Counted from the stretch's first letter, positions 7,574-36,886 are shown. The stretch: DNA of 55,260 nucleotides from an uncultured bacterium (GCA_964635255.1 CAZWOY010000001.1:1-55260), one strand, 5' to 3'. Program-made: numbers and translations. The notes: generated by a model not told the origin, from the sequence alone.

Positions 7574-9115
7574 CTAATAACTTTTTTTTGTTTCTTTGAC
7601 AAGCGCTTCGATAATTCCATCGATACTGTGTTTCAATGCCTCAACCTGAGTCACGAAACCATATTTACGAACTATTTTCGACGTCATGGGTCCGATTGTG
7701 ACTATTTTCGACTCACTGAAGAAGCTTTCCGCATTCTGGGATCCGATACACTTCATCATACCCTCAAATGTTGAACCGCTGGTGTAAACACAGAAATCAG
7801 GAGGATTGTTCAATAACTCCCGAAGCCAGTGCGGTTCCCATTCGGCAAAATCATTCCGATAGACTTTTAACGATAGAACATTAGCTCCTTTCGCCTCTGC
7901 TTTACGCTGAATTATATTATCGCTTTTATTCCCACAGATTCGAACGAGATTCACGCCCTGCAAATCGTAATTGCCGGCGAGCGTTTCAGCAAGCTCTCCA
8001 ACCAAAGCGTTAGCCGGGATTAGATCCGGGAAAATCCCTTTTTTCTGCAATGCCCGGGAAGTTCCATGTCCAACCGCCGCAATCTTGAAATTGCCCATAA
8101 TCCTGACGTCGTATTCATTTTTGAACAGTTTATCAAAGAAATAGTTAACGCCCGCTTCGCTTGTAAAAACGCACCAGCCTCCGGTTCTTGCCATACTCAT
8201 AAACTCTTTCCAGTTATCATTATCTTCTTCGCCGGATATCGAGATCGTTGGATAGGGCAAAGTATCCGCTCCTAATTCGCGAAATTTACCGCATGTTTCA
8301 GCATGATATTCCGCAGGACGGGTTATAAGAATTCGTTTTCCCTGAAGCGGAAGTTTCGCCGGCTGGAACTTTTCATTTGTAGTTCGTTTATGAGTATTCT
8401 TTCCTATCATAATTAATGCGGGCGGTGAAATGTTTTCTTCCTTACTTCGTTCTATGATATTTTGCAGTGTGCCGTAAACACTGCGCTCCAAGCCGGTTGT
8501 GGCGTTTTGGACGACCAGACAGCTCGTTCTCGGGTCCATACCGCCGCTTAATAGTTCGTTCACAATACGTTCAAATTGTCCAACGCCCATATAAATTGCG
8601 AGTAGTTTTCCCTCCAGCCCGCCGAGCTCTTTCCATGGCACAGATGGAGAATCGGAATCGGCTTCATGTCCGGTCGCCTGCACCACCCAGGAAACACTCG
8701 CTCGTTCCGTCAAGGAGAATCTGTTAGTTGCGGCTGCGCCGGAACTTGCAGTTACGCCCGGTATAATTATAAAAGGTATTTCGTTTTCAAAACAGGCGTC
8801 TATTTCTTCGCATAATCTGGCAAAAATCGTCGGATCTCCGCCCTTTAATCTAACGACGGTCTTACCTTTTTTCGCGTTTGTCACTAATAATTCATTTATT
8901 GAAGCCTGCGCCTGGGAGTGCGCTCCCGCTCGCTTGCCAACATAGATCCGTTCGATGCGCTGCGGCAATATGGTTAATAGTTCGGCTGAAACCAACGCAT
9001 CATAAATAACAATATCACACTTTTGCAGCAATTCGGAACCCTTTCTAGTAATCAGACCCGGATCGCCTGGTCCTGCGCCCACAAAATAAACAACCCCGGT
9101 TTTACTGGTCTTCAT
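7574..9115 (-). CDS. cobA/hemD: fused uroporphyrinogen-III C-methyltransferase / uroporphyrinogen-III synthase
   Basis: The N-terminal half is SUMT-like (VYFVGAGPGDPGLIT, VVRLKGGDP, IIPGVTA). The C-terminal half is HemD-like (GKRILITRP...). Confidence 0.85.
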   Translation of the reverse strand: MKTSKTGVVYFVGAGPGDPGLITRKGSELLQKCDIVIYDALVSAELLTILPQRIERIYVGKRAGAHSQAQASINELLVTNAKKGKTVVRLKGGDPTIFARLCEEIDACFENEIPFIIIPGVTASSGAAATNRFSLTERASVSWVVQATGHEADSDSPSVPWKELGGLEGKLLAIYMGVGQFERIVNELLSGGMDPRTSCLVVQNATTGLERSVYGTLQNIIERSKEENISPPALIMIGKNTHKRTTNEKFQPAKLPLQGKRILITRPAEYHAETCGKFRELGADTLPYPTISISGEEDNDNWKEFMSMARTGGWCVFTSEAGVNYFFDKLFKNEYDVRIMGNFKIAAVGHGTSRALQKKGIFPDLIPANALVGELAETLAGNYDLQGVNLVRICGNKSDNIIQRKAEAKGANVLSLKVYRNDFAEWEPHWLRELLNNPPDFCVYTSGSTFEGMMKCIGSQNAESFFSESKIVTIGPMTSKIVRKYGFVTQVEALKHSIDGIIEALVKETKKSY

Positions 9116-9752
9116 CGATTATTCGCTCCATTTTTTCCAGCCATTCCAACCATTCGTCAAAGCCTCCACCCATTGGCGCTCCTTCTGCCTCAGTTCGAAC
9201 AATAACATTGCCCATGCGTTTGAAGTATCGCATTTGTTCATCTGCGTTCTCGAATTTATTCCGAACTATCTCTCTAAAATCATGGGCCGCCTTTACCTTA
9301 CGGCCCCATCCCATGGCATGATCTTGAATCAGATTTCTTACCTTCGCAGCCATAAACGGCGCTTGTCCGCAGGTGCTGACTGCAATAACCAAAGGATCAT
9401 CCCGGAAAATTGCCGGAAAGGCAACGGTACATAGCTCGGGGTCATCGACTACGTTTACAGGAATGTTTAGCGATTTTGCCGCTTGATAAACGCTGCGGTT
9501 TACTTCTCTGTCTGAAGTAGCTGCAATAACTAAATTATAGGTCCGGCAATCATTTTGTTCAAATCTGCGTCTAATCCATTTGAGTCGGTTATTATCCGCA
9601 AGATGCATTATATCCGATATTGCATCGGGTGAAATGACGGTAATATCGGCTCGAAAACTAATTAAAATATTTATCTTATGGAGGGCGATCTTTCCGGCGC
9701 CGATTATAAGACAGTTTAATTCACTGGATTTAAAGAAAAGCGGGAGGTACAT
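9102..9752 (-). CDS. sirC: precorrin-2 dehydrogenase / sirohydrochlorin ferrochelatase (SirC/CysG-N type)
   Basis: N-terminal LPLFFK..ELNCLIIGAGKIALHKI Rossmann motif. It overlaps cobA/hemD by 14 nt. Confidence 0.75.
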   Translation of the reverse strand: MYLPLFFKSSELNCLIIGAGKIALHKINILISFRADITVISPDAISDIMHLADNNRLKWIRRRFEQNDCRTYNLVIAATSDREVNRSVYQAAKSLNIPVNVVDDPELCTVAFPAIFRDDPLVIAVSTCGQAPFMAAKVRNLIQDHAMGWGRKVKAAHDFREIVRNKFENADEQMRYFKRMGNVIVRTEAEGAPMGGGFDEWLEWLEKMERIIDEDQ

Positions 9753-9807
9753 AATTCACCTGCAGCAGTGAGATAAGCGGTCGATTAATTGCCAGAACAT
9801 TTTTATA

Positions 9808-11007
9808 TCAAGAATCATCCAGACCGCTGCTAACCGGTTTAGTTGTAATTCTTCTGACAAATTGTTTATAAAGGCTTTTCGAAAATGCCTCCAACGCCTT
9901 TTGATCTCCTTGCTTGAAATTGTTTCTAAATCGATTCAAAACCTCGCTGCGATCCTCATCCAATATCGCTCGCAATTCCGCATGATTGTTACTTTGAATC
10001 GTTTTTCTCCATTGTTCGAACTTCCGAACCTGTTCCTCGACAAGATCTAAAGCATAAGGCATTTCAATCGATTTTTCGAAGGCTTGTTTTTCCAGATACT
10101 GTTTGATATCGTCGAGATCCAAAAGTACATTATTAGTTAAATGCGTTATATCCGGATCCACATCGCGCGGCACTGCTAAGTCAATAATAATTCGTTGTTT
10201 CTGATCAAATTCGGAAAATATATTTTTATCGACAATAAATCCATCTGACGCTGTAAATGTTATTAAAATATCGATTTCGCTCATCAAATTTCTCAACTCA
10301 TCGAGTGTTTTAGGCGTTACGTTATTATAAAATCGCGCTAATTTTTCCGCTTTTGAATAAGTTCGATTGAACAGGTAGGTTTTGGGGTTTTCGCCGCTCA
10401 GTTTTCGCAGCAATATTTCGGTTGTGCCGTTAACGCCAATTATTCCTATACATGTCTCTTTTACATCAATATCGTAAATGTCTTTTATAATATCTAATGC
10501 CGCGCCGCCTAAACCTTGGGTTCCTTTTCCGATTTCCGTTTCAGTTCTGATTCTTTTGGAAATGTTAAACGCCTGATGAAAAAGTTTATGCAGGATTTTA
10601 CCCGCCCCATCGATTGAACATGCAGCGCTGTAAGCATCCTTGACCTGACTCAATATCTGATATTCGCCAAACAGCATAGAGTCCAAGCCTGAAGCGACCT
10701 TAAACAAATGGCGAGCCGCGCTGGTTTCCTGCCTGACAAAGAGGAAATCATTTAAATCTTTAAATTCATTTATAGCGCCACGCGATTTATAGAATTCAAA
10801 AAGGAGCCGGCGAATGTCCTTTTTTTTATCTGTTATCTGGTAATATTCAATACGATTGCAGGTCGGGACTATCACAATTTCCCGAACTCCTTCGATGTCT
10901 CTATAGTCGTTAACGGCTTGAGGAAGTTCACTGCGGGTTAACTGGAATTTTTCCCGCTGTTCTAATGTGCTTGTATTATGATTTATGCCGCCGCATACTA
11001 AATGCAT
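9808..11007 (-). CDS. hemA: glutamyl-tRNA reductase
   Basis: GINHNTSTLEQREKF, the active-site region VPTCNRIEYY, and a GVNGTTE NADPH-binding region. Confidence 0.85.
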   Translation of the reverse strand: MHLVCGGINHNTSTLEQREKFQLTRSELPQAVNDYRDIEGVREIVIVPTCNRIEYYQITDKKKDIRRLLFEFYKSRGAINEFKDLNDFLFVRQETSAARHLFKVASGLDSMLFGEYQILSQVKDAYSAACSIDGAGKILHKLFHQAFNISKRIRTETEIGKGTQGLGGAALDIIKDIYDIDVKETCIGIIGVNGTTEILLRKLSGENPKTYLFNRTYSKAEKLARFYNNVTPKTLDELRNLMSEIDILITFTASDGFIVDKNIFSEFDQKQRIIIDLAVPRDVDPDITHLTNNVLLDLDDIKQYLEKQAFEKSIEMPYALDLVEEQVRKFEQWRKTIQSNNHAELRAILDEDRSEVLNRFRNNFKQGDQKALEAFSKSLYKQFVRRITTKPVSSGLDDS

Positions 11008-11037
11008 ATCAACTCTTTAATTAACAGTACTATAATC

Positions 11038-12714
11038 TCAGATATGTTTGGGAAGGAACAATGCGCCGCCCGCTAATATTCCCACATCCGCCCATCCGGC
11101 TCGTCTTAAAATCAGCGCTGCGTCCCAACTGCGACCACCCATCTGGCATATAGCTGCAATCGATACGTTTTTAGGAATTTCTTTAATACGGGATCGCAGC
11201 TCTTCAACCGGAATCTCCAAAACTTGTTTATTTTGGGTTTGGATAGGAGTACCCTCTATTTCGTGAGGCAATCTGACGTCAACTATCACGGTTTTTTCAG
11301 ATATGTTCCCAAATTCGTGCGGCGGTACCAGGTTAACTCCGGCGCCGCGGCTGTTTTCCGCAATGAAAGCTATATTATGCAACGCATCGAATGGCAGCGA
11401 ATATGGCGGAGCGTAGGTATGCTCCAGGTCGGTCAATTTGTCTATAGTCCAACCGGCATGCATTATGAGCGATGCTTTATCGAGAATATGTTGAATATGA
11501 CCGTAGGATAACGCCTGTATTCCAAGAATCAGACCATTGCTTTTATCGTATATCGTTTTCAAATGCACCGGAGCGGCTTCGGGCATATAATGAACGCGGT
11601 CATGAAATGTTCCCCAGCACTCATCCACATAGTATCCGTTTTCATCGCATTCAGCCCTTGTTAGCCCAACCGATCCTATCGTCAGATCGAAGAATTTAAG
11701 AATCGACGCGCCGATAACCGGTTCGAATTTTGAGTCGCCATTGCATATATTATCGCCTACAATCCTACCCATGCGAATAGCCAAAGAACCGAAAGGATAG
11801 ATACCTGGTTTGCCATCGACCGCGTTGCTAAGTTCAACGCAATCGCCCGCGGCAAAAACTATCGGATCTGATGTCTGCAATCTGTCGTTAACTTTAATGC
11901 CGCCTGTAACTCCCGTCTCGATACCAGTTTCCTCAGCAATGAACGAATTAGGTTTTACTCCGACATTTACAACCAGATGATCGACTTCAATTCCTTTTCC
12001 ATTTTCCTTTCGTACTATAATTTTACCATTCTTTCTGTCTATCGAACTGCAATTAAAGCCAAGATGCAGATTCACTCCCTGTTCACGCAGCTCAGATTCA
12101 ACCAACATAGCCATATCCGGATCGATCATACTGGGAAGCACATGGTTTTCCAGTTCAAACAGGTCAACGTCGATTCCCCATAAGGCTCTAAACGCTTCAC
12201 AAAGTTCAATCCCAATGTATCCGCCGCCCAAGACGCCAACGCGATTTATCTTACCCTGTTCAAGCAATTTGCGAAGTTCTGCAGCATGATTAATCGAGTT
12301 AAACGCACTGACGCCTTCGCTATCGACTCCGGGAATCGATGGTTTAACCGGAATAGCTCCGGTAGCAAAAATTAAACGATCGTAAGGAATATCCAATAAT
12401 TCATTATTATCCAGACTCCGGCATTTTACAACTCGCAGAGTTCTGTCAACCTGTATAACCTCATGCCCGGTAAGAACTTCGACTCCTTTGACTTCCTTAA
12501 AATAACGCACGTCCTTTATCGTGCCGTTAGGCATGCTGAACAATGCCGAAGGTTGATCTACATCGCCGGAAAGATAATAAGCCAAACCGCAGGTCGAATA
12601 TCCGAATTTCTCATTTCTCTCCAAAACCCTGACATTGGCGTCAGGCTGCAGCCGGCTAATCCGGCAAGCGGCTTTCAAACCGGCTGCTGAACCTCCTATA
12701 ACAATAACTTCCAT
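11038..12714 (-). CDS. CoA-disulfide reductase/NADH-oxidase-family flavoprotein fused to a C-terminal rhodanese domain
   Basis: VIVIGGSAAG FAD motif, single redox Cys in YSTCGLAYY, a second dinucleotide motif VGVLGGGYIG, and a C-terminal rhodanese active-site loop CQMGGRS. Confidence 0.75.
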   Translation of the reverse strand: MEVIVIGGSAAGLKAACRISRLQPDANVRVLERNEKFGYSTCGLAYYLSGDVDQPSALFSMPNGTIKDVRYFKEVKGVEVLTGHEVIQVDRTLRVVKCRSLDNNELLDIPYDRLIFATGAIPVKPSIPGVDSEGVSAFNSINHAAELRKLLEQGKINRVGVLGGGYIGIELCEAFRALWGIDVDLFELENHVLPSMIDPDMAMLVESELREQGVNLHLGFNCSSIDRKNGKIIVRKENGKGIEVDHLVVNVGVKPNSFIAEETGIETGVTGGIKVNDRLQTSDPIVFAAGDCVELSNAVDGKPGIYPFGSLAIRMGRIVGDNICNGDSKFEPVIGASILKFFDLTIGSVGLTRAECDENGYYVDECWGTFHDRVHYMPEAAPVHLKTIYDKSNGLILGIQALSYGHIQHILDKASLIMHAGWTIDKLTDLEHTYAPPYSLPFDALHNIAFIAENSRGAGVNLVPPHEFGNISEKTVIVDVRLPHEIEGTPIQTQNKQVLEIPVEELRSRIKEIPKNVSIAAICQMGGRSWDAALILRRAGWADVGILAGGALFLPKHI

Positions 12715-12738: not shown

Positions 12739-13893
12739 TCAAGCAATGCTGGATCGTACAGATATTCCAATTTTGTATAGAACTGTTATGATCCCGGCTC
12801 CGAAAGCATAAACCATCAATGCGATCATCACTTCCGGAAATGTTGGCATGTATTCTGTCACCGTTCCCAGAGGAGACGGCACGAATCCTGTTACGACCAT
12901 TCCCATGCCCTTGTCGATCCAGATGGACAAGAACGTTATCACAGCCGTAAAAGCCAAAATCGATTCATTCCGGCGAGTTTTTGGATTTAGAAGCAGGAAC
13001 AGGGACGCCACCGCCAAAATCACGGAAATCCAAATCCAGGGAACTAAGGCGCTCTTACCCTCGATTCCCAAATACATATACTTGAAATGAAGCGTATGTT
13101 CGGGGATGTTGCTGTAAATCGCCGTAAATAATTCCATCAGGATTAGGAAAACGTTGATGGTCATCGCATAAGTCACAATTATCGCCAACTTCTGCACCGG
13201 CTCTTTTCCGACCTTGAAATCGCTTATTTTCCTCAGCAGCAGGCACATGATTATCAACAGCGAAGGACCGGATGCGAAAGCTGACGCGAGAAAGCGCGGA
13301 GCCAGCACAGCCGTCATCCAGAACGGACGCGCTGCGAGTCCTGAATATAAAAACGCCGTAACGGTGTGAATGCTGACCGCCCAGGGGATGGAAATGTAAA
13401 TGAACGGCTTAATCCATTTCGGCGGCGGGATCGATTTTTTCTCTGCGTGCAGGGTTGCGTTGCTGATAAGGACGTTGAGAACGAGATAGCCGCCGAGAGC
13501 GATCGTATCCCAGAACATCAGCGAATGAGGCGACGGATGCAGAAACAGATTCATTCCCCGATAGGGCTGCCCCAAATCGACAGCGATAAACGCCACGCAC
13601 ATAACGCAGGCGCCGACTGCCAAAAATTCGCCTAAGATGGTTAGTTTGCCAAACTCCTTATAATTGTGAAGATAGTATGGTAAAACCACCATAACGGCTG
13701 ATGCGGCGACTCCAACCATGAATGTAAACTGTGCGATATAAAAACCCCAGGTTACATCCCGGCTTAAACCGGTTATTCCCAAACCGACATTAAACTGTCT
13801 TACATAAAATGCAAAACCGATAAAAAAGATAATCGCCAGCGCGATAATCCATGACCAATAGTTTTTATTTCCAGTTAATGCTTTTTCTAACAT
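12739..13893 (-). CDS. dsrP: DsrP, NrfD/PsrC-like integral membrane quinone-interacting subunit
   Basis: 384 aa with about 10 predicted TM helices, in the last position of a dsrMKJOP array. Confidence 0.8.
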   Translation of the reverse strand: MLEKALTGNKNYWSWIIALAIIFFIGFAFYVRQFNVGLGITGLSRDVTWGFYIAQFTFMVGVAASAVMVVLPYYLHNYKEFGKLTILGEFLAVGACVMCVAFIAVDLGQPYRGMNLFLHPSPHSLMFWDTIALGGYLVLNVLISNATLHAEKKSIPPPKWIKPFIYISIPWAVSIHTVTAFLYSGLAARPFWMTAVLAPRFLASAFASGPSLLIIMCLLLRKISDFKVGKEPVQKLAIIVTYAMTINVFLILMELFTAIYSNIPEHTLHFKYMYLGIEGKSALVPWIWISVILAVASLFLLLNPKTRRNESILAFTAVITFLSIWIDKGMGMVVTGFVPSPLGTVTEYMPTFPEVMIALMVYAFGAGIITVLYKIGISVRSSIA

Positions 13894-13901: not shown

Positions 13902-14684
13902 TCACACTATATAGTAGATTTGAGGTTGCGTGCCCAGGGACGTTTTCCTGCGAATCGTAAAATTATCTGTAATTAATTCGCGCACTTTCGATTCGCTGTC
14001 TTCCAGATCGCCGAAAGTCAAAGCGCCGGCTTCACAAGCTTCAACGCATGCAGGCTGAAGACCTCGTGAAATTCTCTCTTCGCAGAAAGTGCATTTTTCG
14101 ACCACGCCTCTCATTCGAGTCGGGAAATCGGGATCGATCGAATCCAACAGTGGGCGAGGATTCTTCCAGTTAAAACTGCGAGCGCCGTAAGGACATCCAA
14201 CTATACAATAGCGACAGCCGATGCAACGGTGCCAATCCATCATAACAATGCCGTCCTCGCGCCGCCAAGTGGCTTCCGTCGGACATACCTTTGTACAGGG
14301 TGGATTTTCGCAGTGGTTGCACAGCATAAGAACCGGACCGTGTTCTTGTTCGCGGCTCTCTTTGCCGAGAATCTCTTCCAATACAGGATTTCCGAGTTCA
14401 TGGAAAGCATGATGGAAAGTATCCTTCCATATCCACTTTATTTCGTCTTTAGAATTTTCGATTTTAGGAACGTTGTGCGTTTCATGGCAGGCGTCTATGC
14501 ACTTTGTACAATTATCCTGTTCGAGGCATTTATTAAGATCGACAACCATCGCCCACCTTTTGCCTCCCATAGCGCGTGGATCATCCATAAATTCATCCGC
14601 CGTCAACTCCATCGCTGGGCGCAGAGTAAATCCTGCGACGCCAAGGCCGGCTAACTTGATAAATTTTCGCCTGTCTATACCCAT
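13902..14684 (-). CDS. dsrO: DsrO, periplasmic ferredoxin-like 4Fe-4S subunit
   Basis: Start set at MGIDRRKFIKLAGLG (a twin-arginine signal), whose ATG overlaps the dsrJ stop by 1 nt. Multiple CxxCxxCxxxCP clusters. Confidence 0.8.
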   Translation of the reverse strand: MGIDRRKFIKLAGLGVAGFTLRPAMELTADEFMDDPRAMGGKRWAMVVDLNKCLEQDNCTKCIDACHETHNVPKIENSKDEIKWIWKDTFHHAFHELGNPVLEEILGKESREQEHGPVLMLCNHCENPPCTKVCPTEATWRREDGIVMMDWHRCIGCRYCIVGCPYGARSFNWKNPRPLLDSIDPDFPTRMRGVVEKCTFCEERISRGLQPACVEACEAGALTFGDLEDSESKVRELITDNFTIRRKTSLGTQPQIYYIV

Positions 14685-15100
14685 TACTTTACCTCCTCGG
14701 GTGTAGTATGACAACTCCAGCAATATGGATCGACGCCGGCGTAATTATGGCATCTATCGCAAAAGTTGGCTTTGCTCTGGTGACAGTCGAGGCAGCTTTT
14801 CGACATCCCGCGCGTGTGGACATAATCGCTCACATTCGACAGGCTCATATTGTGTTTCTTGCCTTCGATTCCGACATATATGCGCTTGCCGTCGCGAACG
14901 ACTTTATCTCGCCACTCATCAAGAACGTCCATGTGCGAAGTGCGCATATATTTGGCGTCCTCTACGCATGGTCCCCGTTGAGCTTTTTCCAGTTCGGGCG
15001 CTCCCGCCGCGCTTCCGCTGGCAAAATTATACCAGATCGGAAAAGTGAAGATAATCAGAAAGATGATTATCCCGACTAATACTTTTCCGGTATCATGCAT
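14684..15100 (-). CDS. dsrJ: DsrJ, membrane-anchored triheme cytochrome c
   Basis: N-terminal TM helix plus three CxxCH motifs (CLDCH, CDRCH, CWSCH). Confidence 0.85.
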   Translation of the reverse strand: MHDTGKVLVGIIIFLIIFTFPIWYNFASGSAAGAPELEKAQRGPCVEDAKYMRTSHMDVLDEWRDKVVRDGKRIYVGIEGKKHNMSLSNVSDYVHTRGMSKSCLDCHQSKANFCDRCHNYAGVDPYCWSCHTTPEEVK

Positions 15101-17746: not shown

Positions 17747-18292
17747 TTATTTTTCTTTGTTCTGGTCTGCATTTTCCTGTTCCGGTTGAACAAAATAGGG
17801 ATGACGTTCCAAAAGTCTGAAATAATACCTCTTCACTTGTTCGGCTTGAACCTTATATAGTTGCTCTTTACAGGAATCATAATGATTAAAGCATTGCATG
17901 CAAAGCGAATCTATCTGATACTGCAAATCGAAAAATTGCTCTAAGATTAAAACATTGTTAAGTCTGTCAGATATGTGATCCTTAATAATCCTCTTAAGCA
18001 GAAAGAGAAAATCCGTCGCTTCGGACGGTTTAAAATCCTGCACTGATCGGATGCGCGTAATATTTTCCACAGCCGAATCAGCTTCTTCTTTTCCGGCGGC
18101 GCCGCTGAGAAAATCAAAAATTCTCTCGATGCTTTCCGCAATACCAACGCCAACCGGATTTGAAAACCGATTTTTCTGACGGTCAAAAAAGTTCACGGAT
18201 TCGCTCGGATATGCCTCCAAAATGCGGTTTTTCCAAGAGTTGAGCAACCTGGACTTATCCGCTCTAAGAATTTCCTGTAAATTCATCCCCAA
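17747..18292 (-). CDS. dsrT: DsrT-like protein (RsbRD N-terminal-domain type)
   Basis: Its position directly upstream of dsrM is the classical dsrT slot. The N-terminal pattern W..RILEAYPSES..FF..QKNRFSNPVG resembles the RsbRD_N domain. Confidence 0.5.
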   Translation of the reverse strand: MGMNLQEILRADKSRLLNSWKNRILEAYPSESVNFFDRQKNRFSNPVGVGIAESIERIFDFLSGAAGKEEADSAVENITRIRSVQDFKPSEATDFLFLLKRIIKDHISDRLNNVLILEQFFDLQYQIDSLCMQCFNHYDSCKEQLYKVQAEQVKRYYFRLLERHPYFVQPEQENADQNKEK

Positions 18293-18457: not shown

Positions 18458-18484
18458 CGATTTAAATAGTGTTTGAAAATAGAA

Positions 18485-28346: not shown

Positions 28347-29492
28347 TTACCGCAATTTCTGCGGTTCGCGCCCGATTGACTTGGCGTAAGTCATCCCCAG
28401 GGTGCGATAGAACATGTGCCCGAAATGACTGTAGGGCGCATACCATAGCAAGAAGAACACCAGCACGAGGTGAACGTAGTATGTCCCGTAAGCCAGCATC
28501 GGCAGTTCGCCCATGCGTAAGAACTGTATTATCATCCCGGTAAACGCCACGCCTAATAACACCACATAGAACAGCGTGTAGGAATACCTCATCGCTCCGC
28601 CCGCTTCAGGGTCGCGCGCGCGAATAACTATCACTATCGCCAGTCCCGCCAACAACGCCAGACCGCTGACATTGCCCAAAATCTTAATCGGATGGTACAT
28701 CGCCATCGATGGAATAGCGTCTAACGGGTAATGAGCCGGATGAATCAAATGCAAGTATTCCATTCTCGCCAGCGCTAACCCCGCCGTAGCCATTGCGCCG
28801 ATAAATCCATAAAAAACTAACAAGTGAGCGGCTCTGCGATATTTCGCGGCGTCGCATCTTCCAAACCGATTGTGGTTGATAATATCGCTTATCGTCCGAA
28901 AAAGCGCAGTCATGAAACCGATCTTGGGCTTAATTCCGCCTTCGCGAACCATTGCCTTATAAAACCGATGCAAACCGACGGCTGCGAATGCAAAAATCAT
29001 AATGTTGCCCGCCATCCACAAACCTTCGATCAATCCGTTCTTAACGAACTCGGTAAAGTGAACATGGCCTGTGAATTCGGTTATCTTCGACCAATCGGCT
29101 AACAGCGCCACAATAATTATCGGAATAATAAACAAAATCGGCAATCCCGACGGTCTCGCGAGAAGCTTTCCCATAAACGGAGGGAATGCGTAATGCTCGA
29201 ACGCATGATTTCGCGCCGCCGCCATAACGTCTCCCGGTCGAGCGCCTCTGGGGCATTTTACATTGCAGTCATTACATTGATGGCAAAGCCAGATATCCGG
29301 ATCCGCCGCGAGCTTATCTTCTAACCCCCATTGGGCGTACATCATTTCTTTGCGCGGGAACGGCCGGTCTTCCGGCGTCAATTTACATACAGCGGAGCAA
29401 GTCGCACACTGGTAGCATTTCTTAAGATCCTCGCCGCCAGCGGATTCAATTCTTTTTATGAATTTAGCGTCTGTCTTGTAAGTCGATGCCAA
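28347..29492 (-). CDS. qmoC: QmoC (HdrC-like 2x[4Fe-4S] domain fused to a NarI/HdrE-like heme-b membrane domain)
   Basis: N-terminal CYQCATCSAVC and CHQCNDCNVKCP, followed by about 6 TM helices with conserved His residues. Confidence 0.8.
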   Translation of the reverse strand: MASTYKTDAKFIKRIESAGGEDLKKCYQCATCSAVCKLTPEDRPFPRKEMMYAQWGLEDKLAADPDIWLCHQCNDCNVKCPRGARPGDVMAAARNHAFEHYAFPPFMGKLLARPSGLPILFIIPIIIVALLADWSKITEFTGHVHFTEFVKNGLIEGLWMAGNIMIFAFAAVGLHRFYKAMVREGGIKPKIGFMTALFRTISDIINHNRFGRCDAAKYRRAAHLLVFYGFIGAMATAGLALARMEYLHLIHPAHYPLDAIPSMAMYHPIKILGNVSGLALLAGLAIVIVIRARDPEAGGAMRYSYTLFYVVLLGVAFTGMIIQFLRMGELPMLAYGTYYVHLVLVFFLLWYAPYSHFGHMFYRTLGMTYAKSIGREPQKLR

Positions 29493-29501: not shown

Positions 29502-30326
29502 CTATTTCTGGGAAACGGGTTGCTTAAATTTCGAAGCCGCTTCCGGCTTTATCGGCACTGTTTTCTCACCGAATAAAGCCACTTTCACCCATTTAAATCC
29601 AAATCTGAGCAATTCTTCATCATCCTTTTCCAGCAAACTTAACTCATTGTCAGAAATATCGAATCTCTGTAAAAACGTACTTCCAAAAATGAAAGTTCTG
29701 AATTTATCCAAATCGTATAAAGCCATCCAGTACATTTCCACATGTTTCGGCGTAGGTTTCCAGCCCTTTGTAAGTTTCGAGTGTAAAGTCACTTCTTTGA
29801 AAAGTTCACCGAACTCATCATAGGGTCTGATACCCTGATCGTCGATCCACTCGCCTATTTTCCATTTTTTTTCACAGCCGAAACCATGACAAACGTCTTC
29901 GCGCATTTCGAAATAAAACTTTTCATCGTTCAATCCTTCCATCTCGGAAGGCGATGCCGAGCCCAACGGGTACATCCGGCAGGGCCAGGGGCGATTATCA
30001 TAGATCGTACAGCCTTTTTCCTGATCGACAAAATGGCATTCCTTTTTATCCGTATCCTTCATCAGCATCAGCGGCATAGGCAGCTTCTGCTTTTCATCGA
30101 ACGGCACGATCGTATATCTGCTTAAAAACTGATCCGACCTGAGATCCAATGCATTTTTCATTCGCATAACGTCATAAGGCGTCAAGAAAATATTGACGTC
30201 GGCGCAACAAGCATTGAAACAATCCAAATGCGGTCCGCATTCGAATTGAAATATATCCTCTTCACTTAACCTTGGGTATTCCTTAAGAATCTTTTCCTTA
30301 AGCTTTTCGATTTCTTCGAAACTCAT
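29502..30326 (-). CDS. YkgJ-family (CxxCxxCC-type) cysteine-cluster protein
   Basis: ECGPHLDCFNACCADVNIFLTPYD and CHFVD..KGCTIYDNRPWPCRMYP match the hallmark pattern of the putative Zn/Fe-chelating YkgJ family. Start moved to the Met at 30326, because the upstream 37 codons of the ORF are REP hairpin sequence. Confidence 0.65.
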   Translation of the reverse strand: MSFEEIEKLKEKILKEYPRLSEEDIFQFECGPHLDCFNACCADVNIFLTPYDVMRMKNALDLRSDQFLSRYTIVPFDEKQKLPMPLMLMKDTDKKECHFVDQEKGCTIYDNRPWPCRMYPLGSASPSEMEGLNDEKFYFEMREDVCHGFGCEKKWKIGEWIDDQGIRPYDEFGELFKEVTLHSKLTKGWKPTPKHVEMYWMALYDLDKFRTFIFGSTFLQRFDISDNELSLLEKDDEELLRFGFKWVKVALFGEKTVPIKPEAASKFKQPVSQK

Positions 30327-30383: not shown

Positions 30384-30463
30384 AGCAGCCCGAACACTCT
30401 TGTTCGGACGTTGTTTACATTTGGACGTCCACGACATCCGCGAACAAGAGTGTTCGCGCTGCT
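30384..30463. repeat. REPIN-like inverted doublet of the 24-nt hairpin element AGCAGCSCGAACACTCTTGTTCGS (family A)
   Basis: Copies at 30384-30407 and 30440-30463 are inverted relative to each other. Each folds as CGAACA/TGTTCG plus a closing pair. The right copy abuts the stop codon of the 104-aa gene. Confidence 0.85.
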
Positions 30464-30776
30464 AACCAATAATCCGATCCTTCATCGCGTTCTTCGACCA
30501 GACGGGCAAAGGGCCTGTTTGACCGGTTTTCGGATTAAAGAAATATCTGTATGATGTATTCGTTCTAAACTGACTCATCATCCATGACCAACCTCGAACG
30601 AAGTAGGGACATTCATCGTTGAAACAAACCTTAAAATACTCTACCTCATATCCCGCTTCAGGCGGCATCTCCATTTTCTTCAAATCTGAACCGCAATGCG
30701 GGCATTTCTGAATATCGATGATCTTTTCCTGATTCGAATCCAAAATCCAACTCAAATTTTGTGAAATATCACTCAT
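30462..30776 (-). CDS. small zinc-ribbon protein of unknown function
   Basis: 104 aa with CPHCGS...(26 aa)...CFNDECPYF, which gives four Cys in a ribbon-like arrangement. Trp/aromatic-rich C-terminal half. I recognise no family. Confidence 0.55.
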   Translation of the reverse strand: MSDISQNLSWILDSNQEKIIDIQKCPHCGSDLKKMEMPPEAGYEVEYFKVCFNDECPYFVRGWSWMMSQFRTNTSYRYFFNPKTGQTGPLPVWSKNAMKDRIIG

Positions 30777-30910
30777 GACGTCGCTTTATCGCTCTAATTC
30801 AGTGTGTTTACTTACTTTTTGCGATATGTAACATTAGTTATTGCAACACTTATGCCATTAAATGGTTTTGCTTTTAATAAAAAAGTTCAAATAGGGAAAA
30901 AGTATTTCAT

Positions 30911-30942
30911 AAACGGAAGCCCCTCACCGGGGGCTTCCGTTT
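30911..30942 (-). terminator. strong hairpin about 50 nt downstream of the aprA stop (terminator/attenuator)
   Basis: AAACGGAAGCCCC-TCACCG-GGGGCTTCCGTTT, a 13-bp stem. Both strands have a modest T-rich trail (GTTTAT). Confidence 0.55.
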
Positions 30943-30991
30943 ATTTCCAACAACCAGTAAAATACGTCATAGACGTATCTGACCGGGAAGA

Positions 30992-32908
30992 TTAGCCGCC
31001 TAACAACTCATGGTCTTCAGGGCACGGGAAAATGTGCTTCACAGGTCGCTTAATCATTTCCCATTCGGCTTTGTTCGGATCGTATTTACAATTAGCAAAT
31101 ACCAGCCAATCTTTGTTGTTCATCGCCGGGGTATCCGCGCGGAAATAATATCCGGGCCAACGGGTTTCTTCGCGGAACAGAATCGTGCGAACATGAGCTT
31201 CCGCCTGCCACATACGGTGGACGTTCTCCCAGGCGCGCATTAATTCATGCAGATCTTCCGCAGCCAGCTTCTTCGAGTCTTCAGCGAGAACGCCTAACAG
31301 CTCGAGACCTTTCTCAAGATTGGACTTGCTGGTCTTAAATTGAGAAGAAACTCCGCCTGCATATTCGTCCATGATCTTCTGGAGTCGGAACATGAACATT
31401 TTCGGGCGGATGTAATTTGCGTTGATGTGAGGATCGGTCGTCTCTTTCGAGTGTTTATCGAACAGATCCATCGGAGCAAGGATTTCTTCCTTTATTGCTT
31501 CGATATCTCCATCGAAAGATACATCTTCCGGATGATCGACAACCCACTTTACAGCGGCTTTGCCTGCGATACGGCCTTCAGCGTGCGAACCCGATGAGAA
31601 CTTATGCGAGGAAGCGCCGGAAGCGTCGCCTGCGCAGAACAGTCCATCGACGGTTGACATCTGCGGGTAATCCCAGTAGTATTCGCCTTTGGTGTCATCG
31701 TTCTGCAGGTCGGCAGGTCCGCTAACCCATGCGCCGGAAGCGCCGGAGTGCGAACCGATGAAGTACGGCTCGGCGGCGGCGATTTCGGAGGGCTTTTCTT
31801 CGGGAGCCACATCGGAGGCGGCCCAGAGAACCGCCTGAGAAATGGTCATATCGAGGAAGTCTTCCCAGGCTTCGCTTTCGAGTTCCTTCATCTTCTTCTT
31901 GTAGGCTTTCTTGTCGTCTTTGTACTTTTCAGCCAGGTTGGCGATGGCTTCTTCAGTTCTCATGAAGATGGGTCCCTTGCCTTCCATGACGTCAAGCATC
32001 ATCAGCCAGTTGCGGAGGTTAGCCGGAACGGGCTTTACGCTGCCGTAAGGTTTCCAGTTCTCGAGCTCAGGGCGGCGGGTTTCCATATAGGCTTCGCCGA
32101 GTCCGTTGGTTGCGCGGGACTTGAACAGCAGGAACCAGGCGCCGACAGGACCGTAGGCGTCCTTGAAGCGCACCGGAATGAAGCGAACTTCCTGGCAGGT
32201 CATTTCAGCGCCGGCTTTCAGCGTGAAATATGCAGAGGAACCGGAGTTCCACGGCGGATACCAGGCGCGTCCAAGACCTTCGCCGGATGAACGCGGCTTA
32301 AAGACATGAACAGCTCCGCCCATTACAGCGATAACTGCTTTCGCCGTAAAGACGTAGAATTTGTTTTCGCGAACGGAAAATCCGACTGCGCCAACGCAGC
32401 GGTTGCCGTTCATCAACGGACCGACGATGAAAACGCGTTCATAAATATTGTCGATTCCGAGTGCGTTTTTGGCTGCTTCAGCAACGATGACCTTATAAGA
32501 TTCACCATTGATCATAAGCTGCCAGCGACCTTCGTGAACATAACCGCCATCTTCAGCTTTCCAAATTGGGAGTCCCCATTTTTCGAAAAGGTGAACGGAT
32601 GAATCGACGTGGCGGGCGATATTCGCCACCAAGTCTTCGCGGGTTATGCCCATTAAGTCGTTGCGTACGTATTCAACGTAATCTTTGACGGTATTCTGAC
32701 CGTCTTTGATTCCCACATACTGGTTAATAGCGGAAAGACCCATAGCAACGGCGCCTGAGCGGTCCACAGCGGCCTTATCGACCATTGTAACCTGAACGTC
32801 GTGCTTCTTTGCCCAGTAGGCTGCTTCCACGGCTGCGCCGCAAGCTGCCATACCGCCACCGAGTATGAGAAGATCGGTTTTTACTTCTACAGTTTCAAAA
32901 TTCGGCAT
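30992..32908 (-). CDS. aprA: adenylylsulfate (APS) reductase alpha subunit
   Basis: 638 aa with N-terminal FAD motif DLLILGGGMAACGAA. Fumarate-reductase-family flavoprotein directly after aprB. Confidence 0.9.
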   Translation of the reverse strand: MPNFETVEVKTDLLILGGGMAACGAAVEAAYWAKKHDVQVTMVDKAAVDRSGAVAMGLSAINQYVGIKDGQNTVKDYVEYVRNDLMGITREDLVANIARHVDSSVHLFEKWGLPIWKAEDGGYVHEGRWQLMINGESYKVIVAEAAKNALGIDNIYERVFIVGPLMNGNRCVGAVGFSVRENKFYVFTAKAVIAVMGGAVHVFKPRSSGEGLGRAWYPPWNSGSSAYFTLKAGAEMTCQEVRFIPVRFKDAYGPVGAWFLLFKSRATNGLGEAYMETRRPELENWKPYGSVKPVPANLRNWLMMLDVMEGKGPIFMRTEEAIANLAEKYKDDKKAYKKKMKELESEAWEDFLDMTISQAVLWAASDVAPEEKPSEIAAAEPYFIGSHSGASGAWVSGPADLQNDDTKGEYYWDYPQMSTVDGLFCAGDASGASSHKFSSGSHAEGRIAGKAAVKWVVDHPEDVSFDGDIEAIKEEILAPMDLFDKHSKETTDPHINANYIRPKMFMFRLQKIMDEYAGGVSSQFKTSKSNLEKGLELLGVLAEDSKKLAAEDLHELMRAWENVHRMWQAEAHVRTILFREETRWPGYYFRADTPAMNNKDWLVFANCKYDPNKAEWEMIKRPVKHIFPCPEDHELLGG

Positions 32909-32919: not shown

Positions 32920-33360
32920 CTACTTAAGGGTGTATAATTCATCTAAACCACATGAACCTGGTTCTGTGAACAGAACCGGGCTGTCAAGATCGTCGGCGCC
33001 GGTCTCCCAACCGCCGTCGGGTACTGCTGAACCTTCTGCAGTTGTACGGATCGGGAACTTGAATCTTTTCAGGTTTCCATTGCGGAACTTAACCGTCCAC
33101 ATAATGGAATCCGTACTGCGCATTGGCGTTACCATCGCACCCAGCGGAACGAAATCTGCGTATCCGCGAACTTCGACTGCATCCTGCGGGCAAATCTTCA
33201 CGCAGTTGTAGCACTCCCAGCACATCTCCGGCTCAATGTTGGTTGCCTTCTCGGTCTTTTTATTCAAGACCATGAGATCATTGGGGCAGATATACTGGCA
33301 TGCTGTTTTGTCCAATGCTTTGCATCCGTCGCATTTCTCGGGATTTACATAGCTTGGCAT
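32920..33360 (-). CDS. aprB: adenylylsulfate reductase beta subunit
   Basis: MPSYVNPEKCDGCKALDKTACQYICP and CWECYNCVKICP clusters, with a C-terminal tail typical of AprB. Confidence 0.9.
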   Translation of the reverse strand: MPSYVNPEKCDGCKALDKTACQYICPNDLMVLNKKTEKATNIEPEMCWECYNCVKICPQDAVEVRGYADFVPLGAMVTPMRSTDSIMWTVKFRNGNLKRFKFPIRTTAEGSAVPDGGWETGADDLDSPVLFTEPGSCGLDELYTLK

Positions 33361-33431: not shown

Positions 33432-34664
33432 TTACTTGGCGTCGCCGGTTGCGTGGCCATGAAGCTTAACTTCAACCTTCTCGGATAAACCGGCGTAATA
33501 ATCCATTAATATCTTTAACACTTCGGGACGGCTGAATTCTTTCGGAATCTCATCCGTTTGACCTTCGCTCAGCATCTTGCGCAGCTTCGTGCCGGAAAGG
33601 AAAAGCCTTTCTTCCTTGCCATGCGGACAGGTCTTCATCGAAGCCATGCCGGCGCAAGTGTAGCAGTAGAACGTCCAGTCGATCGGCAGGGGCTTCAGTT
33701 GCAGAGCGCCTTCCCACAGTTCATGGAAAATATTCTGCGCGTCGAACGGACCGTAATAGTCGCCTACGCCTGCATGATCGCGGCCTACGATCAGATGCGA
33801 GCATCCGAAGTTTTGACGGAACACGGCGTGCAGCAAAGCCTCGCGCGGTCCTGCGTAGCGCATATCCAGCGGATAGCCGCCAGTTACGACCGAGTCTTTG
33901 ACAAAGTAGTTTTCAACCAGCGTGTTGATGCACTTTACGCGAACATCGGCGGGAATATCGCCGGGTTTCAGCTTGCCGACCAATTGATGAATGTAAAGTC
34001 CGTCGGAAACTTCCAGAGCGATCTTCGCAAGGTATTCATGCGAACGGTGCATCGGATTGCGAAGCTGTAAAGCTGCGATTGTTTTCCAGCCTTTCGCTTC
34101 GAATGTCGCTCTCGATTCCGCCGGACGCTGGTATAATTTTGCGAATTCCTTCGGGAAAATACTTTCCGACAATACTTTCACCGGGCCGCCGAGGTTGACG
34201 TCTTTCTGCGCCATGACCATTTTAACGCCCGGATGTTCGATATCGTCCGTGGTATAAACGTGCTTGCACTCGAATTTTTTATCGATGGCGTACTTTTCCT
34301 CTACCTTCATGGTAGCCATTATCTCGCCATCTTCGTCATTGATCAGCGCAATCTCGTCGCCGTCTTTGAGCGAATCGGCAAATGCTTTGTCAACGCTTAC
34401 AGTAATTGGGATAGGCCAGAATGTGCCATCGGTCATTTTCATGTCCTGGCAAACGCCTTTCCAATCGTCGTGACCCATGAAGCCCTTGAGCGGCGTAAAA
34501 CCGCCGATCCCAAGCATAATTAAATCACCGGCTTCGCGTGAAGTAATGCGAGCCTGGGGCAGACTTTCTGCACGTTTGCGTTCCGCGGCAAGTTCATCTC
34601 CCTCTAAAAGGAGAGGCATTAATTCATCTGCGCCATGCGGTGGAATTAATGTTGATTCTGCCAT
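33432..34664 (-). CDS. sat: sulfate adenylyltransferase (ATP sulfurylase)
   Basis: [11 protein letters not shown] and VGRDHAGVG motifs. Confidence 0.9.
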
Positions 34665-34765
34665 TTTGAAATCTCCTCTATTAAAAAACTTAGTTTAAAT
34701 TACTTCTCTGTTTCTAAATGCCAAAATGCGACGAACTTTTTGTCCGCCGCACCGGCATTGCCTCC

Positions 34766-36886
34766 TCACAACAGGGGCGCAATCACAAGCGAGACTACGC
34801 TCATTAACTTAATCAAAATATTCAGCGAAGGACCCGCGGTATCCTTGAATGGATCGCCGACGGTATCGCCAACCACTGCGGCTTTATGTGCATCGGAACC
34901 CTTGCCCCCATGCGCGCCGGCTTCGATATGTTTCTTGGCGTTATCCCAAGCGCCGCCGGCGTTCGACATGAATATCGCCATAAGCACTCCAGCGCTGGTG
35001 ACGCCGGCTAACAAACCGCCAAGAATTTCCGGATGACTGCCAAATCCAAGGATTTTTGGTCCAAATCCGATAATCACCGGCGTTAACACTGCTAATAAAC
35101 CGGGGGCGATCATCTGCTTCAAAGCCCCGCCGGTTGCGATTGAGACGCAGCGGCTGTGATCCGCTTTGACGCCTTCTTTGCCTTCTAACAGTCCGGGGAT
35201 GTCTTTAAACTGCCGGCGGACTTCCTCGATCATAGCGCCAGCCGCTCTTCCCACCGCCTGCATAGCAAACGAACTGAACAAAAACGGAAGCATTGCTCCG
35301 ATAAAGAGACCAGCCATTACGTTCGGATTCAACACATCGATTTGAATGGGACCGTGTTTCCTCACAACAACGGTAACAAAAGCGCTGAACAGCGCCAATG
35401 CGGTTAGCGCCGCCGATCCAATAGCAAAGCCTTTGCCGATGGCTGCGGTTGTGTTGCCGACGGCGTCGAGTTTATCTGTCCTGGCTCTAATATCGGGTCC
35501 GAGTTCAGCCATTTCGGCGATGCCGCCTGCGTTGTCGGCAACGGGACCGTAAGCGTCGACGGCGAGCTGAATGCCGGTTGTCGAAAGCATGCCCACAGCG
35601 GCGATGGCTATCCCGTACAATCCGGCAAAGGCATAAGAAAGCACTATAGCGATTGCCAACACTAACAGCGGAAAACCGGTCGATCTCATGCCGGTGGCTA
35701 AACCGGAAATAATGTTCGTCGCGGCGCCGGTCAGGCTTTCCTTAGCAATCCCGTGAACCGGGCTTTTGTTTTCAGCCGTATAGAATTCAGTAATCAAACC
35801 GATTGCGGTGCCGGCAGCCAAACCGACAATCGTCGCCCAAAAGACGCCCATCCCGGTGTAACTGGTTGAACTGCCAAATAAATCGGTAACCTGAACGGGT
35901 TCAGGGATAAACCACTTTATAATAAAGAAGGAAGCGATAATCATCAGAATCGCAGCTAAAAAAGTTCCCGTGTTGAGGGCTGCCTGGGGATTGCCGCCTT
36001 CTTTGGTGCGAACAAACAAGGTTCCTATTATCGAGACGATAATGCCAGCCGCTCCCAACACCAGCGGCAGCGCAACCGGATTCAGATTTCCGGCGGACGC
36101 CACCCAGCTTGATCCAGCGATGACCATTGCGCCAATAATAGCGCCAACGTAGGATTCGAACAAGTCGGCTCCCATGCCCGCTACGTCGCCGACGTTATCG
36201 CCGACGTTATCGGCGATTACGGCGGGATTGCGCGGATCGTCCTCGGGAATGCCGGCTTCAACTTTGCCAACGAGGTCGGCTCCAACGTCGGCGGCTTTCG
36301 TATATATGCCGCCTCCGACCCTGGCGAAGAGCGCTATCGACGAGGCTCCCAGTGAAAATCCTGAGATAATCTGAAGCAGATATTCAACTTCAGTTCCGAT
36401 ACCGTATTTTATGTTCAGTACTTTCGTATAGAAAAGAAATAGGACTGTTAATCCGGTCAGCGCCAGTCCGACGACCGACATGCCCATGACCGCGCCGCCC
36501 GAAAAAGCAACGCCCAAAGCTTTGGTCAATCCTGTCCTGGCGGCGTTTGCCGTACGAACATTTGCCTTCGTTGCGACGCGCATTCCAAAGAAACCGGCAA
36601 GTCCGCTGCACAGAGCGCCGACAACGAATGAAAGAGCTACTAAAGCGGAAGAACTGGGATCCACAGCGTTTGCTATGCCCAGCAAAATGGCAACGATTAC
36701 GACAAAAATGGCTAAAATCGAGTACTCTTTACCCAGAAACGCCATAGCGCCTTCGCGGATATTACCGGCTATTTCAGCCATCTTGCTGCCGCCGTCATCC
36801 TGCTTGCTTACCCAGCTTGCTTTCAGCAAGGCAAAAAGCAGCGCTAAAATTCCGCATCCCAGGGTTACGATTACAAACGTATCCAA
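34766..36886 (-). CDS. hppA: membrane-integral ion-translocating pyrophosphatase (K+-dependent signature)
   Basis: 706 aa and about 16 TM helices. Motifs DNVGDNVGD and [11 protein letters not shown], plus [10 protein letters not shown] (Ala rather than Lys after GNTT). Confidence 0.9.

Follow-up and report, generated by a model that had tools for sequence, protein, structure and literature searches.

A contiguous 25-gene sulfate-respiration array, probably a lineage-typical chromosomal supercluster of an uncultivated FCB bacterium

A stretch of 55,260 nucleotides from an uncultured bacterium (GCA_964635255.1, the whole of NCBI contig CAZWOY010000001.1, positions 1 to 55260; the window) carries an unbroken array of genes for dissimilatory sulfate reduction. 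Its open reading frames (ORFs) include 25 back-to-back minus-strand genes that run from position 36886 down to 7574, a span of about 29 kb on one strand that reads from HppA through CobA/HemD in transcription order, and the same-strand run extends past the array through two extra genes, orf258 and orf407, to position 5350. With corrected gene starts, 71 nt or less separates the genes at 19 of the 24 junctions. The widest gaps are those of aprA/orf104 (215 nt), dsrC/dsrT (192 nt) and orf104/ykgJ (about 135 nt), followed by hppA/sat (101 nt) and dsrN/dsrL (87 nt). Four junctions overlap (qmoA/qmoB, dsrK/dsrJ, dsrJ/dsrO and sirC/cobA), that of dsrJ and dsrO by 1 nt when the DsrO start is set at the methionine of its twin-arginine translocation (TAT) signal. 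An earlier note on this DNA, here called the original prediction, had described 25 consecutive pathway genes on the minus strand with mostly small gaps and the same four overlaps; the ORF run, the family scans and the junction measurements bear this out.

Gene identities were assigned by NCBIfam and Pfam profile scans with the curated NCBIfam cut-offs, which were exceeded by every catalytic or complex subunit that has a dedicated model, and the predicted assignment to sulfate reduction is upheld by these NCBIfam equivalogs. The array, all of it on the minus strand, begins with hppA (34766-36886) for a membrane ion-translocating pyrophosphatase (NF001960, 958 bits, cut-off 546; TIGR01104, 920 bits, cut-off 652), sat (33432-34664) for sulfate adenylyltransferase (NF003166, 519 bits, cut-off 387) and the genes for the beta and alpha subunits of adenosine 5'-phosphosulfate (APS) reductase, aprB (32920-33360; TIGR02060, 203 bits, cut-off 136) and aprA (30992-32908; TIGR02061, 892 bits, cut-off 642). 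Then come orf104 (30462-30776), for a small zinc-ribbon protein of 104 amino acids with a CPHC...CFNDEC pattern, and ykgJ (29502-30326), for a CxxCxxCC-type Cys-rich protein of 274 amino acids counted from M38 (PF03692, E = 7e-11). The qmo genes stand in the order C-A-B and not A-B-C. qmoC (28347-29492) matches NF038018 with 386 bits (cut-off 300), while no dedicated model matched QmoA or QmoB, which were assigned by architecture and position: qmoA (27015-28283) encodes an HdrA-like flavoprotein of fitting position and size whose HdrA-like matches lie below the HdrA cut-offs, and qmoB (24754-27015) an HdrA-like protein whose C-terminal part is MvhD/VhuD-like (the VhuD-like match spans residues 619-751) and whose homologues carry PF02662 (FlpD).

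The sulfite-reduction genes follow with dsrA (23475-24689; TIGR02064, 559 bits, cut-off 393) and dsrB (22331-23413; TIGR02066, 509 bits, cut-off 342), both apparently of the reductive bacterial type, a dsrD-like gene (22058-22303) placed directly after dsrB whose 81-amino-acid product is predicted to be a winged-helix protein, and dsrN (20628-22037) for a siroheme amidase of the CobB/CbiA family (NF002204, 412 bits, cut-off 254), the name DsrN being based on gene position. Next are dsrL (18855-20540; NF009410, 615 bits, cut-off 516), assigned to type 2 below, and dsrC (18485-18802; TIGR03342, 119 bits, cut-off 54), whose product ends in ...GACKVAGLAKPTGCV with both conserved cysteines present. 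dsrT (17747-18292; RsbRD_N, PF14361, E = 6e-16) precedes dsrM (16715-17725, 536 bits), dsrK (15093-16712, 735 bits), dsrJ (14684-15100, 146 bits, three CxxCH heme motifs), dsrO (13902-14684 from the TAT-signal methionine, 315 bits) and dsrP (12739-13893, 449 bits), each of these five above its equivalog cut-off; dsrT has been reported always to lie directly ahead of dsrMKJOP (PMC6018805). The array closes with a gene that domain scans identify as a fusion of a coenzyme A (CoA)-disulfide reductase and a rhodanese of 558 amino acids, referred to as Npsr-like (11038-12714), hemA (9808-11007) for glutamyl-tRNA reductase (TIGR01035, 272 bits, cut-off 210), sirC (9102-9752) for a precorrin-2 dehydrogenase of the CysG N-terminal type (TIGR01470, 148 bits, cut-off 62) that is possibly also a chelatase, and a cobA-hemD fusion (7574-9115) for uroporphyrinogen-III methyltransferase and synthase (TIGR01469, 259 bits, cut-off 185), the HemD half of which scores below the equivalog cut-offs while its homologues carry PF02602. 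Four of these genes, namely orf104, ykgJ, dsrT and the Npsr-like gene, had not been named in the original prediction. Its statement that every step is covered goes too far, as family scans of the window's ORFs found no hemL, hemB, hemC or sulfate transporter gene in the window.

The arrangement is not peculiar to this contig. We found relatives through genes of the array, using a DsrB scan of genome collections, protein searches with YkgJ and DsrP and tblastn mapping, and we refer to the fetched loci by L numbers. All 25 genes, from hppA to cobA/hemD, stand in the same order on contig CAZAGU010000006.1 of GCA_964484805.1, on NODE_18 of ENA ERZ24794672 and in the "Calditrichota bacterium" GCA_042585405.1, and the YkgJ and DsrP match lists suggest at least five further array-bearing contigs. 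A 274-kb contig of a metagenome-assembled genome (MAG), L003, has an equal order over the 19 genes that it holds, from aprB to dsrP and including orf104, ykgJ and qmoC-A-B. An exact search placed the window's DsrB on one Logan contig of 1.9 kb alone, and the annotated YkgJ gave no exact record. The order dsrABDNLC-T-MKJOP is also found in Ignavibacteria, Kryptoniota and other loci, and Zixibacteria and candidate division LCP-89 have equal modules in permuted order, again with orf104-ykgJ after aprBA. That such consolidation is unusual, as had been proposed, is not supported in view of the identical order on at least three other contigs, of L003 and of similar clusters published since 2005 (PMC2702500, PMC6338057, PMC6018805, PMC10439189).

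Identity to the relatives is 72 to 88% for HppA, Sat, AprBA, DsrAB, DsrC and DsrP and 39 to 55% for the Npsr-like protein, HemA, SirC and CobA/HemD. Conservation also reaches into the surroundings. Downstream of the array, L088 and L089 have homologues of orf258 and orf407 with 43 to 49% identity, placed there behind an inserted aminotransferase/kinase pair, and a CarboxypepD_reg protein with a type IX secretion system (T9SS) sorting tail adjoins hppA both in the window and in L093, the Calditrichota contig. The best named matches of the flanking UvrD are from Calditrichota (61 to 63%) and from Candidatus Hatepunaea meridiana of the phylum Electryoneota (56%), after which identity falls to 49% or less, and searches with the array's YkgJ and DsrP name equal taxa. 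Judged by these sequences, the organism appears to be nearest to Calditrichota-labelled MAGs and Candidatus Electryoneota.

In base composition, the array blends with its flanks. The G+C fraction is 0.472 in the array, 0.431 in the left flank and 0.494 in the right flank, and the tetranucleotide profile of the array correlates with that of about 26 kb of flanking DNA at r = 0.956; taken in blocks, the mean correlation is 0.82 between array and flank, 0.87 within the array and 0.79 within the flanks. No integrase, transposase or conjugation gene was detected in the window by family scans, no tRNA and no Rfam match were found in it, a repeat search gave no repeat pair bracketing 7574-36886, and DsrB had no match among 72,556 plasmids. 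A palindromic hairpin resembling repetitive extragenic palindromic (REP) elements lies on the minus strand between orf104 and ykgJ (30384-30463, fold z = -6.2) and recurs at 46048-46125 in the right flank. The copies in array and flank indicate that the array carries the host's own repeat family.

The type of pathway was assessed from DsrAB, DsrL and the gene after dsrB. The best solved relatives of DsrA are the DsrA proteins of Archaeoglobus fulgidus and Desulfovibrio vulgaris. A DsrAB phylogeny, one of the checks named in the original prediction, was built as a concatenated, midpoint-rooted neighbor-joining (NJ) tree of 78 fetched loci, without bootstraps and without Desulfobacterota references, and it put the window's DsrAB in a reductive bacterial clade. 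There it forms a tight group with L003, L084 and L086 inside a wider clade that has Thermodesulfovibrio as its sister and lies far from the oxidative-type DsrAB of proteobacteria, Nitrospirae RBG-16-64-22 and Magnetococcia-like bacteria. DsrB identity is 66 to 82% within the clade, 55 to 58% to Nitrospirota reducers and 47 to 53% to the oxidative types. By this grouping the window's DsrAB is assigned to the reductive bacterial type. DsrL has 561 amino acids, an N-terminal Fer4_20 and C-terminal Fer4_21/Fer4_7 Fe-S domains, no DsrL-1A insertions and a YRR motif at residues 299-301, which is the signature of the NADP(H)-specific DsrL-2 (Loffler et al., PMC7596348). It is accordingly classed as a type 2 protein, probably of subcluster 2C as judged from its DsrD-associated relatives. 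DsrD together with DsrL-2C beside a reductive DsrAB has been proposed as an indicator of the reductive pathway (Diao et al., PMC10591310).

The weak point of this typing is the DsrD call. A gene for 81 amino acids lies directly 3' of dsrB in all loci of the clade that have downstream sequence and in Thermodesulfovibrio, and its counterpart has been called dsrD in these lineages (PMC6338057, PMC10591310). The window's protein had no sequence match in Pfam, NCBIfam or the PDB, and the solved DsrD was matched neither by the 81-amino-acid sequence alone nor by an 18-sequence profile. A single-sequence AlphaFold2 (AF2) model is a winged helix for which the DsrD structures 1ucr and 1wq2 come only at ranks 37 to 38 among many winged-helix proteins, with TM scores of 0.62 to 0.67 (1ucr at rank 38, TM 0.62). 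DsrE, DsrF and DsrH families gave no match among the window ORFs scanned, which were a subset of those listed.

Taken in the reductive direction, the gene set would work as follows. Sat would make APS from sulfate and ATP, and HppA would hydrolyze the pyrophosphate with coupled ion translocation. AprBA would then reduce APS to sulfite, for which QmoCAB would pass on electrons from the quinone pool, and the reductive-type DsrAB would reduce sulfite onto DsrC, with the DsrD-like protein acting as a putative activator and DsrL-2 as a predicted NADPH-linked electron input. DsrMKJOP would regenerate DsrC and release sulfide, while DsrN, HemA, CobA/HemD and SirC would supply the amidated siroheme. 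For the Npsr-like enzyme, the probable role is the NAD(P)H-dependent reduction of persulfide or polysulfide sulfur.

The array probably does not form a single block of transcription. A candidate promoter with 11 of 12 consensus matches (TTGACA-17-TATATT, 37002-37030, minus strand) stands some 115 nt ahead of hppA, its -10 region also reading TAtaTTTG, and a promoter-like site is present ahead of orf258. Two hairpins, judged by folding against shuffled sequences and by positional conservation, lie inside the array. The first, 3' of aprA (30909-30944, minus strand, fold z = -4.5), is a G+C-rich stem of 15 bp with a U-rich tail that resembles a terminator or attenuator, and hairpins of differing sequence are found at the equal position in L003 and L086. 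The second, 3' of dsrC (18416-18458, minus strand, fold z = -5.85), has 14 bp followed by UUUGAU and is terminator-like; G+C-rich hairpins after dsrC, again of differing sequence, occur in L088, L090, L002 and L010 and, together with a U tract, in L089. Folding of the spacer after cobA/hemD revealed no unusual structure. From these features we infer at least three co-directional transcription units, which would be punctuated by the hairpins after aprA and dsrC and would comprise roughly hppA-sat-aprBA, orf104-ykgJ-qmoCAB-dsrABDNLC and dsrTMKJOP-npsr-hemA-sirC-cobA/hemD. The suggestion in the original prediction that the array is tightly coregulated is plausible as a conjecture.

We consider it likely, with good confidence, that the array is a chromosomal and lineage-typical sulfate-respiration supercluster of an uncultivated bacterium of the Fibrobacterota-Chlorobiota-Bacteroidota (FCB) group and that it was inherited with its surroundings and not recently acquired. 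Several points weigh against this. The relatives carry the array by construction, having been found through its genes, and array-less relatives lie outside the sample; the taxonomy comes from best-match names and not from a marker-gene tree. Only 12 of 28 Electryoneota genomes are reported to have a dsr operon (PMC10439189), so that gain or loss must have occurred within that phylum. An Acidobacteriota sequence is the sister of the window's DsrAB clade, and the wider clade bears the labels Zixibacteria, Ignavibacteria, Kryptoniota, Gemmatimonadota, Planctomycetes and Chloroflexi, a mixture of phyla which makes an ancient interphylum transfer of the cluster likely somewhere in its history. As to the direction, DsrL-2 is also found in sulfur oxidizers (PMC7596348) and sulfur disproportionators carry an equal gene set (PMC7596348, PMC6018805), and as to transcription, consensus promoter and terminator scans of the window gave hits at chance level. 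A genomic island that was acquired recently and can be transferred laterally, an idea close to the transferable sulfur island of the original prediction, would agree with contiguous, co-directional modules, with a DsrAB clade common to several phyla, with the published idea of a "metabolic island" (Mussmann 2005, as cited in PMC2702500) and with the repeat-bracketed cassettes of toxin-antitoxin type in the right flank described below. We nevertheless find it highly improbable, because the composition shows no break against the flanks, integrase, transposase, tRNA and border repeats are all missing from the window, a REP-like element of the host lies within the array, no plasmid matched DsrB, the taxa named by UvrD are those named by the array genes, and gene order and part of the neighbors are kept in relatives in which those neighbors are only 43 to 49% identical. 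The original prediction had named, as what would speak against it, a composition and phylogeny congruent with the flanking genes and with relatives that already have the array, and this is the pattern that we find. An older event is a more serious contender. An FCB ancestor could have received a pre-assembled cluster by ancient lateral transfer, with vertical descent since then, and this would be compatible at shallow depth with the inheritance that we favor. The position of the window's DsrAB next to Acidobacteriota within a clade that mixes FCB phyla with Planctomycetes and Chloroflexi speaks for it, as do the multiple lateral transfers of dsrAB reported within some phyla (PMC6018805), the limited presence of the dsr operon in Electryoneota (12 of 28 genomes) and the permuted modules of Zixibacteria and LCP-89 in which orf104-ykgJ is still kept after aprBA. 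On the other hand, the NJ tree has no bootstraps, some MAG labels may be wrong ("Rickettsiales", "Elusimicrobia"), and many members of the clade are FCB phyla, so that vertical descent with loss would explain much of the pattern. We regard such a transfer as quite possible, if not as the favored history.

The direction of the pathway and the number of transcripts can be weighed in the same way. The genes could be run oxidatively or in disproportionation, from sulfide, sulfur or thiosulfate to sulfate, as established sulfur oxidizers have DsrL-2 and its presence alone is undecisive for direction according to the authors of that classification (PMC7596348), and a "reductive" gene set serves sulfide oxidation in Desulfurivibrio and cable bacteria (PMC10591310, PMC13293266). 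An Npsr-like enzyme for sulfane sulfur within the array and the peroxiredoxin and thioredoxin reductase genes in the flank would also suit such a metabolism. This is set against a DsrAB that groups with the reductive type in the NJ tree, a DsrD-like gene downstream of dsrB, the lack of dsrEFH matches among the window ORFs scanned and a DsrL that groups with DsrD-associated relatives, and in the related Kapabacteria cluster in situ transcription fitted reduction under anoxia (PMC10591310, summarizing PMC6338057). We therefore hold oxidation or disproportionation to be unlikely and sulfate reduction to be the probable direction. That all 25 genes form one operon, with one mRNA that starts at the promoter ahead of hppA, seems similarly doubtful. 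The single strand, the 19 short gaps among 24 and the four overlaps would fit one operon, and the site upstream of hppA is the only strong intergenic promoter-like site on the strand of the array. However, the stable hairpins after aprA and dsrC are followed by A+T-rich spacers of 130 to 190 nt and are kept at equal positions in relatives despite their differing sequence, which argues for the division into units.

The pair formed by orf104 and ykgJ looks like the sole little-studied part of the locus. orf104 had no family match in NCBIfam or Pfam. It is kept after aprA in L003, L084, L086, L093, L091 and L092, always paired with ykgJ, and its homologues match PF04606 (Ogr_Delta), with no mark of weakness in L091 and weakly in L092. 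In the protein search, YkgJ gave 1715 homologues at E <= 1e-5, and the 274-amino-acid form is the one annotated by NCBI. A confident AF2 model of YkgJ (pLDDT 88.3, pTM 0.85) found no neighbor in a structural search of the PDB, and a metagenome scan with YkgJ gave two short contigs only, of no value for synteny. The pair directly follows aprBA in the window's lineage and on a Zixibacteria contig (qmoAB-sat-aprBA-orf103-ykgJ) and stands two genes farther downstream in LCP-89 (qmoCAB-sat-aprBA-x-x-orf94-ykgJ), and in Kapabacteria "two conserved hypothetical genes" have been noted between aprA and qmoC (Thiel et al., PMC6338057). Among the papers searched, none links YkgJ to APS reductase. We tentatively suggest that orf104 and YkgJ may be a dedicated accessory pair of the AprBA-Qmo step, acting in maturation or as an extra electron-transfer or docking partner.

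The Npsr-like protein has a full-length match in the PDB to NoxA-3 of A. fulgidus (6pfz, E = 3e-113), which we take to be a persulfide reductase. Its other matches are 3nta, 3icr and 8a56, structures that include a Shewanella FAD-dependent disulfide oxidoreductase/rhodanese, the CoA-disulfide reductase-rhodanese fusion (CoADR-RHD) of Bacillus anthracis and a CoA-persulfide reductase. The N-terminal redox cysteine (Cys42) and a C-terminal rhodanese loop (CQMGGRS) are both present, and the score against the CoA-disulfide reductase equivalog, 344 with a cut-off of 579, indicates that the protein is not a plain CoA-disulfide reductase. By its motifs and domains it can be classed as a predicted fusion of the Npsr type. 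The gene is kept 3' of dsrP in L088, L089 and L090, and a gene for an NAD(P)H sulfur oxidoreductase has been noted inside the dsr operons of Electryoneota (Vigneron et al., PMC10439189). On the Zixibacteria locus L091 (GCA_011056555.1, 10989-18881) we also observed an Npsr-like gene at the head of hemA, sirC, cobA/hemD, hemC/hemD, hemB and hemL, a set that is convergent with qmoAB-sat-aprBA-orf103-ykgJ. Its presence in Zixibacteria extends the linkage of Npsr-like and siroheme genes beyond the window's lineage.

Clustered sulfate-respiration genes have been described repeatedly. The Wadden Sea fosmids 39f7 and ws7f8 from uncultured prokaryotes carry such clusters, for which a "metabolic island" and concomitant horizontal transfer were proposed, according to the papers citing that work (Mussmann et al. 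2005, via PMC2702500 and PMC6338057). The DsrAB of these fosmids belongs to the same environmental supercluster, with 73 to 75% identity to that of Kapabacteria and Ignavibacteria (PMC6338057); so far as the fosmids can be compared through the citing papers, the window differs in giving no support for mobility. Newly found lineages often keep the whole dsr pathway within one genomic region (Anantharaman et al. 2018, PMC6018805), and several lineages have DsrABDNCTMKJOP as one cluster (Neukirchen et al., PMC10504309). These clusters resemble the window in having dsrT next to dsrM, and the window goes beyond them with hppA-sat-aprBA-qmoCAB upstream and npsr-hemA-sirC-cobA/hemD downstream.

Nearly equivalent arrangements are known from Kapabacteria (Thiel et al. 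2019, PMC6338057) and Electryoneota (Vigneron et al. 2023, PMC10439189). Candidatus Thermonerobacter thiotrophicus of the Kapabacteria shares with the window the order sat-aprBA-hyp-hyp-qmoC and then dsrAB-dsrD-dsrN-(hyp)-dsrL-dsrC but has qmoA and qmoB elsewhere, dsrM-2 and dsrK-2 after dsrC, dsrTMKJO at a separate locus and dsrP elsewhere again, and its hppA, Npsr-like and siroheme genes are not described as linked (PMC6338057). As a side observation, the closest full relative of the window has an extra hypothetical gene for 146 amino acids between dsrN and dsrL (L084, 19138-19578; L088, 2908-3348), which recalls the "dsrN-hyp-dsrL" of Kapabacteria, whereas the window has only the 87-nt gap. 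The MAGs of Electryoneota and AABM5-125-24, by best-match names the same lineage as the window or a neighboring one, likewise hold complete sat, aprAB, qmoABC and dsr sets (PMC10439189, PMC9324843), and the NAD(P)H sulfur oxidoreductase of the Electryoneota dsr operon matches the window's Npsr-like gene (PMC10439189). The structure of the dsr operon varies across Electryoneota, and the operon of Tariuqbacter carries petBCD where dsrJOP would stand, as well as two copies of dsrK, in contrast to the canonical dsrMKJOP of the window (PMC10439189, PMC9324843).

Desulfovibrio vulgaris and Desulfobacterium autotrophicum have Sat, AprBA, QmoABC, DsrABCD and DsrMKJOP in common with the window. In these model sulfate reducers the genes are scattered around the chromosome (PMC2702500), a contrast correctly drawn in the original prediction; their qmo genes follow aprBA in the order A-B-C, and neither a DsrL beside dsrAB nor an orf104-ykgJ pair has been reported for them. 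The window contributes a version in which all 25 genes are joined, as is typical of its lineage; it is a clean example and not a discovery. It presents the sulfate-respiration apparatus, from the energy-conserving pyrophosphatase and sulfate activation over both reductases and both membrane complexes to amidation and part of siroheme synthesis, as a stable block that keeps its collinearity even where the ordinary genes of two genomes share no more than about 45 to 50% identity. This stability bears on the old question of whether the pathway spread as a pre-assembled "metabolic island" and the loci of the model organisms were scattered secondarily. The locus also offers candidates for experiments in orf104/YkgJ, the Npsr-like gene after dsrP and the DsrL-2 with its predicted NADPH specificity.

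The two genes that continue the same-strand run, orf258 and orf407 (5350-7339, minus strand), encode proteins with signal-peptide-like N termini. They gave no Pfam or NCBIfam family above threshold and form a pair outside the pathway that is nevertheless syntenic in relatives. On the other side of the array, the plus-strand gene at 37424-43375 encodes a protein of 1983 amino acids with a C25 peptidase propeptide and catalytic domain, a CarboxypepD_reg domain and a T9SS sorting tail, as the original prediction had seen for a neighboring surface protein. T9SS-sorted proteins flank the array in L086, L090 and L093 too, and the view that this neighbor marks the boundary of a foreign insertion was rejected on that ground.

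REP-like palindromic families, for example GTTCCCACGCTCCAGCGTGGGAAC and TCCGAACAAGAGTGTTCGGGCTGCTT, are spread over the right flank at 43417-43602, 44911-44968, 46048-46125, 48384-48460, 50848-50934, 51843-52093 and 54717-54780, and it is the TCCGAACAAGAGTGTTCGGGCTGCTT family that has the copy at 30384-30463 in the array. Direct repeats of 96 nt that are 85% identical (44943-45038 and 45859-45954) bracket a DUF433/DUF5615 (PIN-like) pair at about 45090-45748, which looks like a small repeat-bounded cassette of the toxin-antitoxin type. A second such cassette holds a HEPN/nucleotidyltransferase pair (about 51046-51728) between inverted repeats at 50795-50875 and 51848-51927, one of 55 nt with 87% complementarity and one of 25 nt with 96%.

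The minus-strand gene at 43686-44717 encodes a 4Fe-4S dicluster protein of 343 amino acids that narrowly passes the NCBIfam model of a reductive-dehalogenase subfamily (162.1 bits, cut-off 160.35), and about seven tandem 8-nt units (TTAACAAT) lie directly 3' of its stop codon (43627-43685). An NfnAB/SudAB-type pair is found at 52150-54483 on the minus strand, 15 kb from the array, with a GltD-like subunit (TIGR01316, 628 bits) and an FAD/NAD-binding subunit (NF004862, 418 bits), and it could supply NADPH for DsrL-2. In the left flank, genes for CutA, a peroxiredoxin and a thioredoxin reductase stand together on the plus strand (815-2805), a group in keeping with the oxygen tolerance that has been proposed for related lineages.

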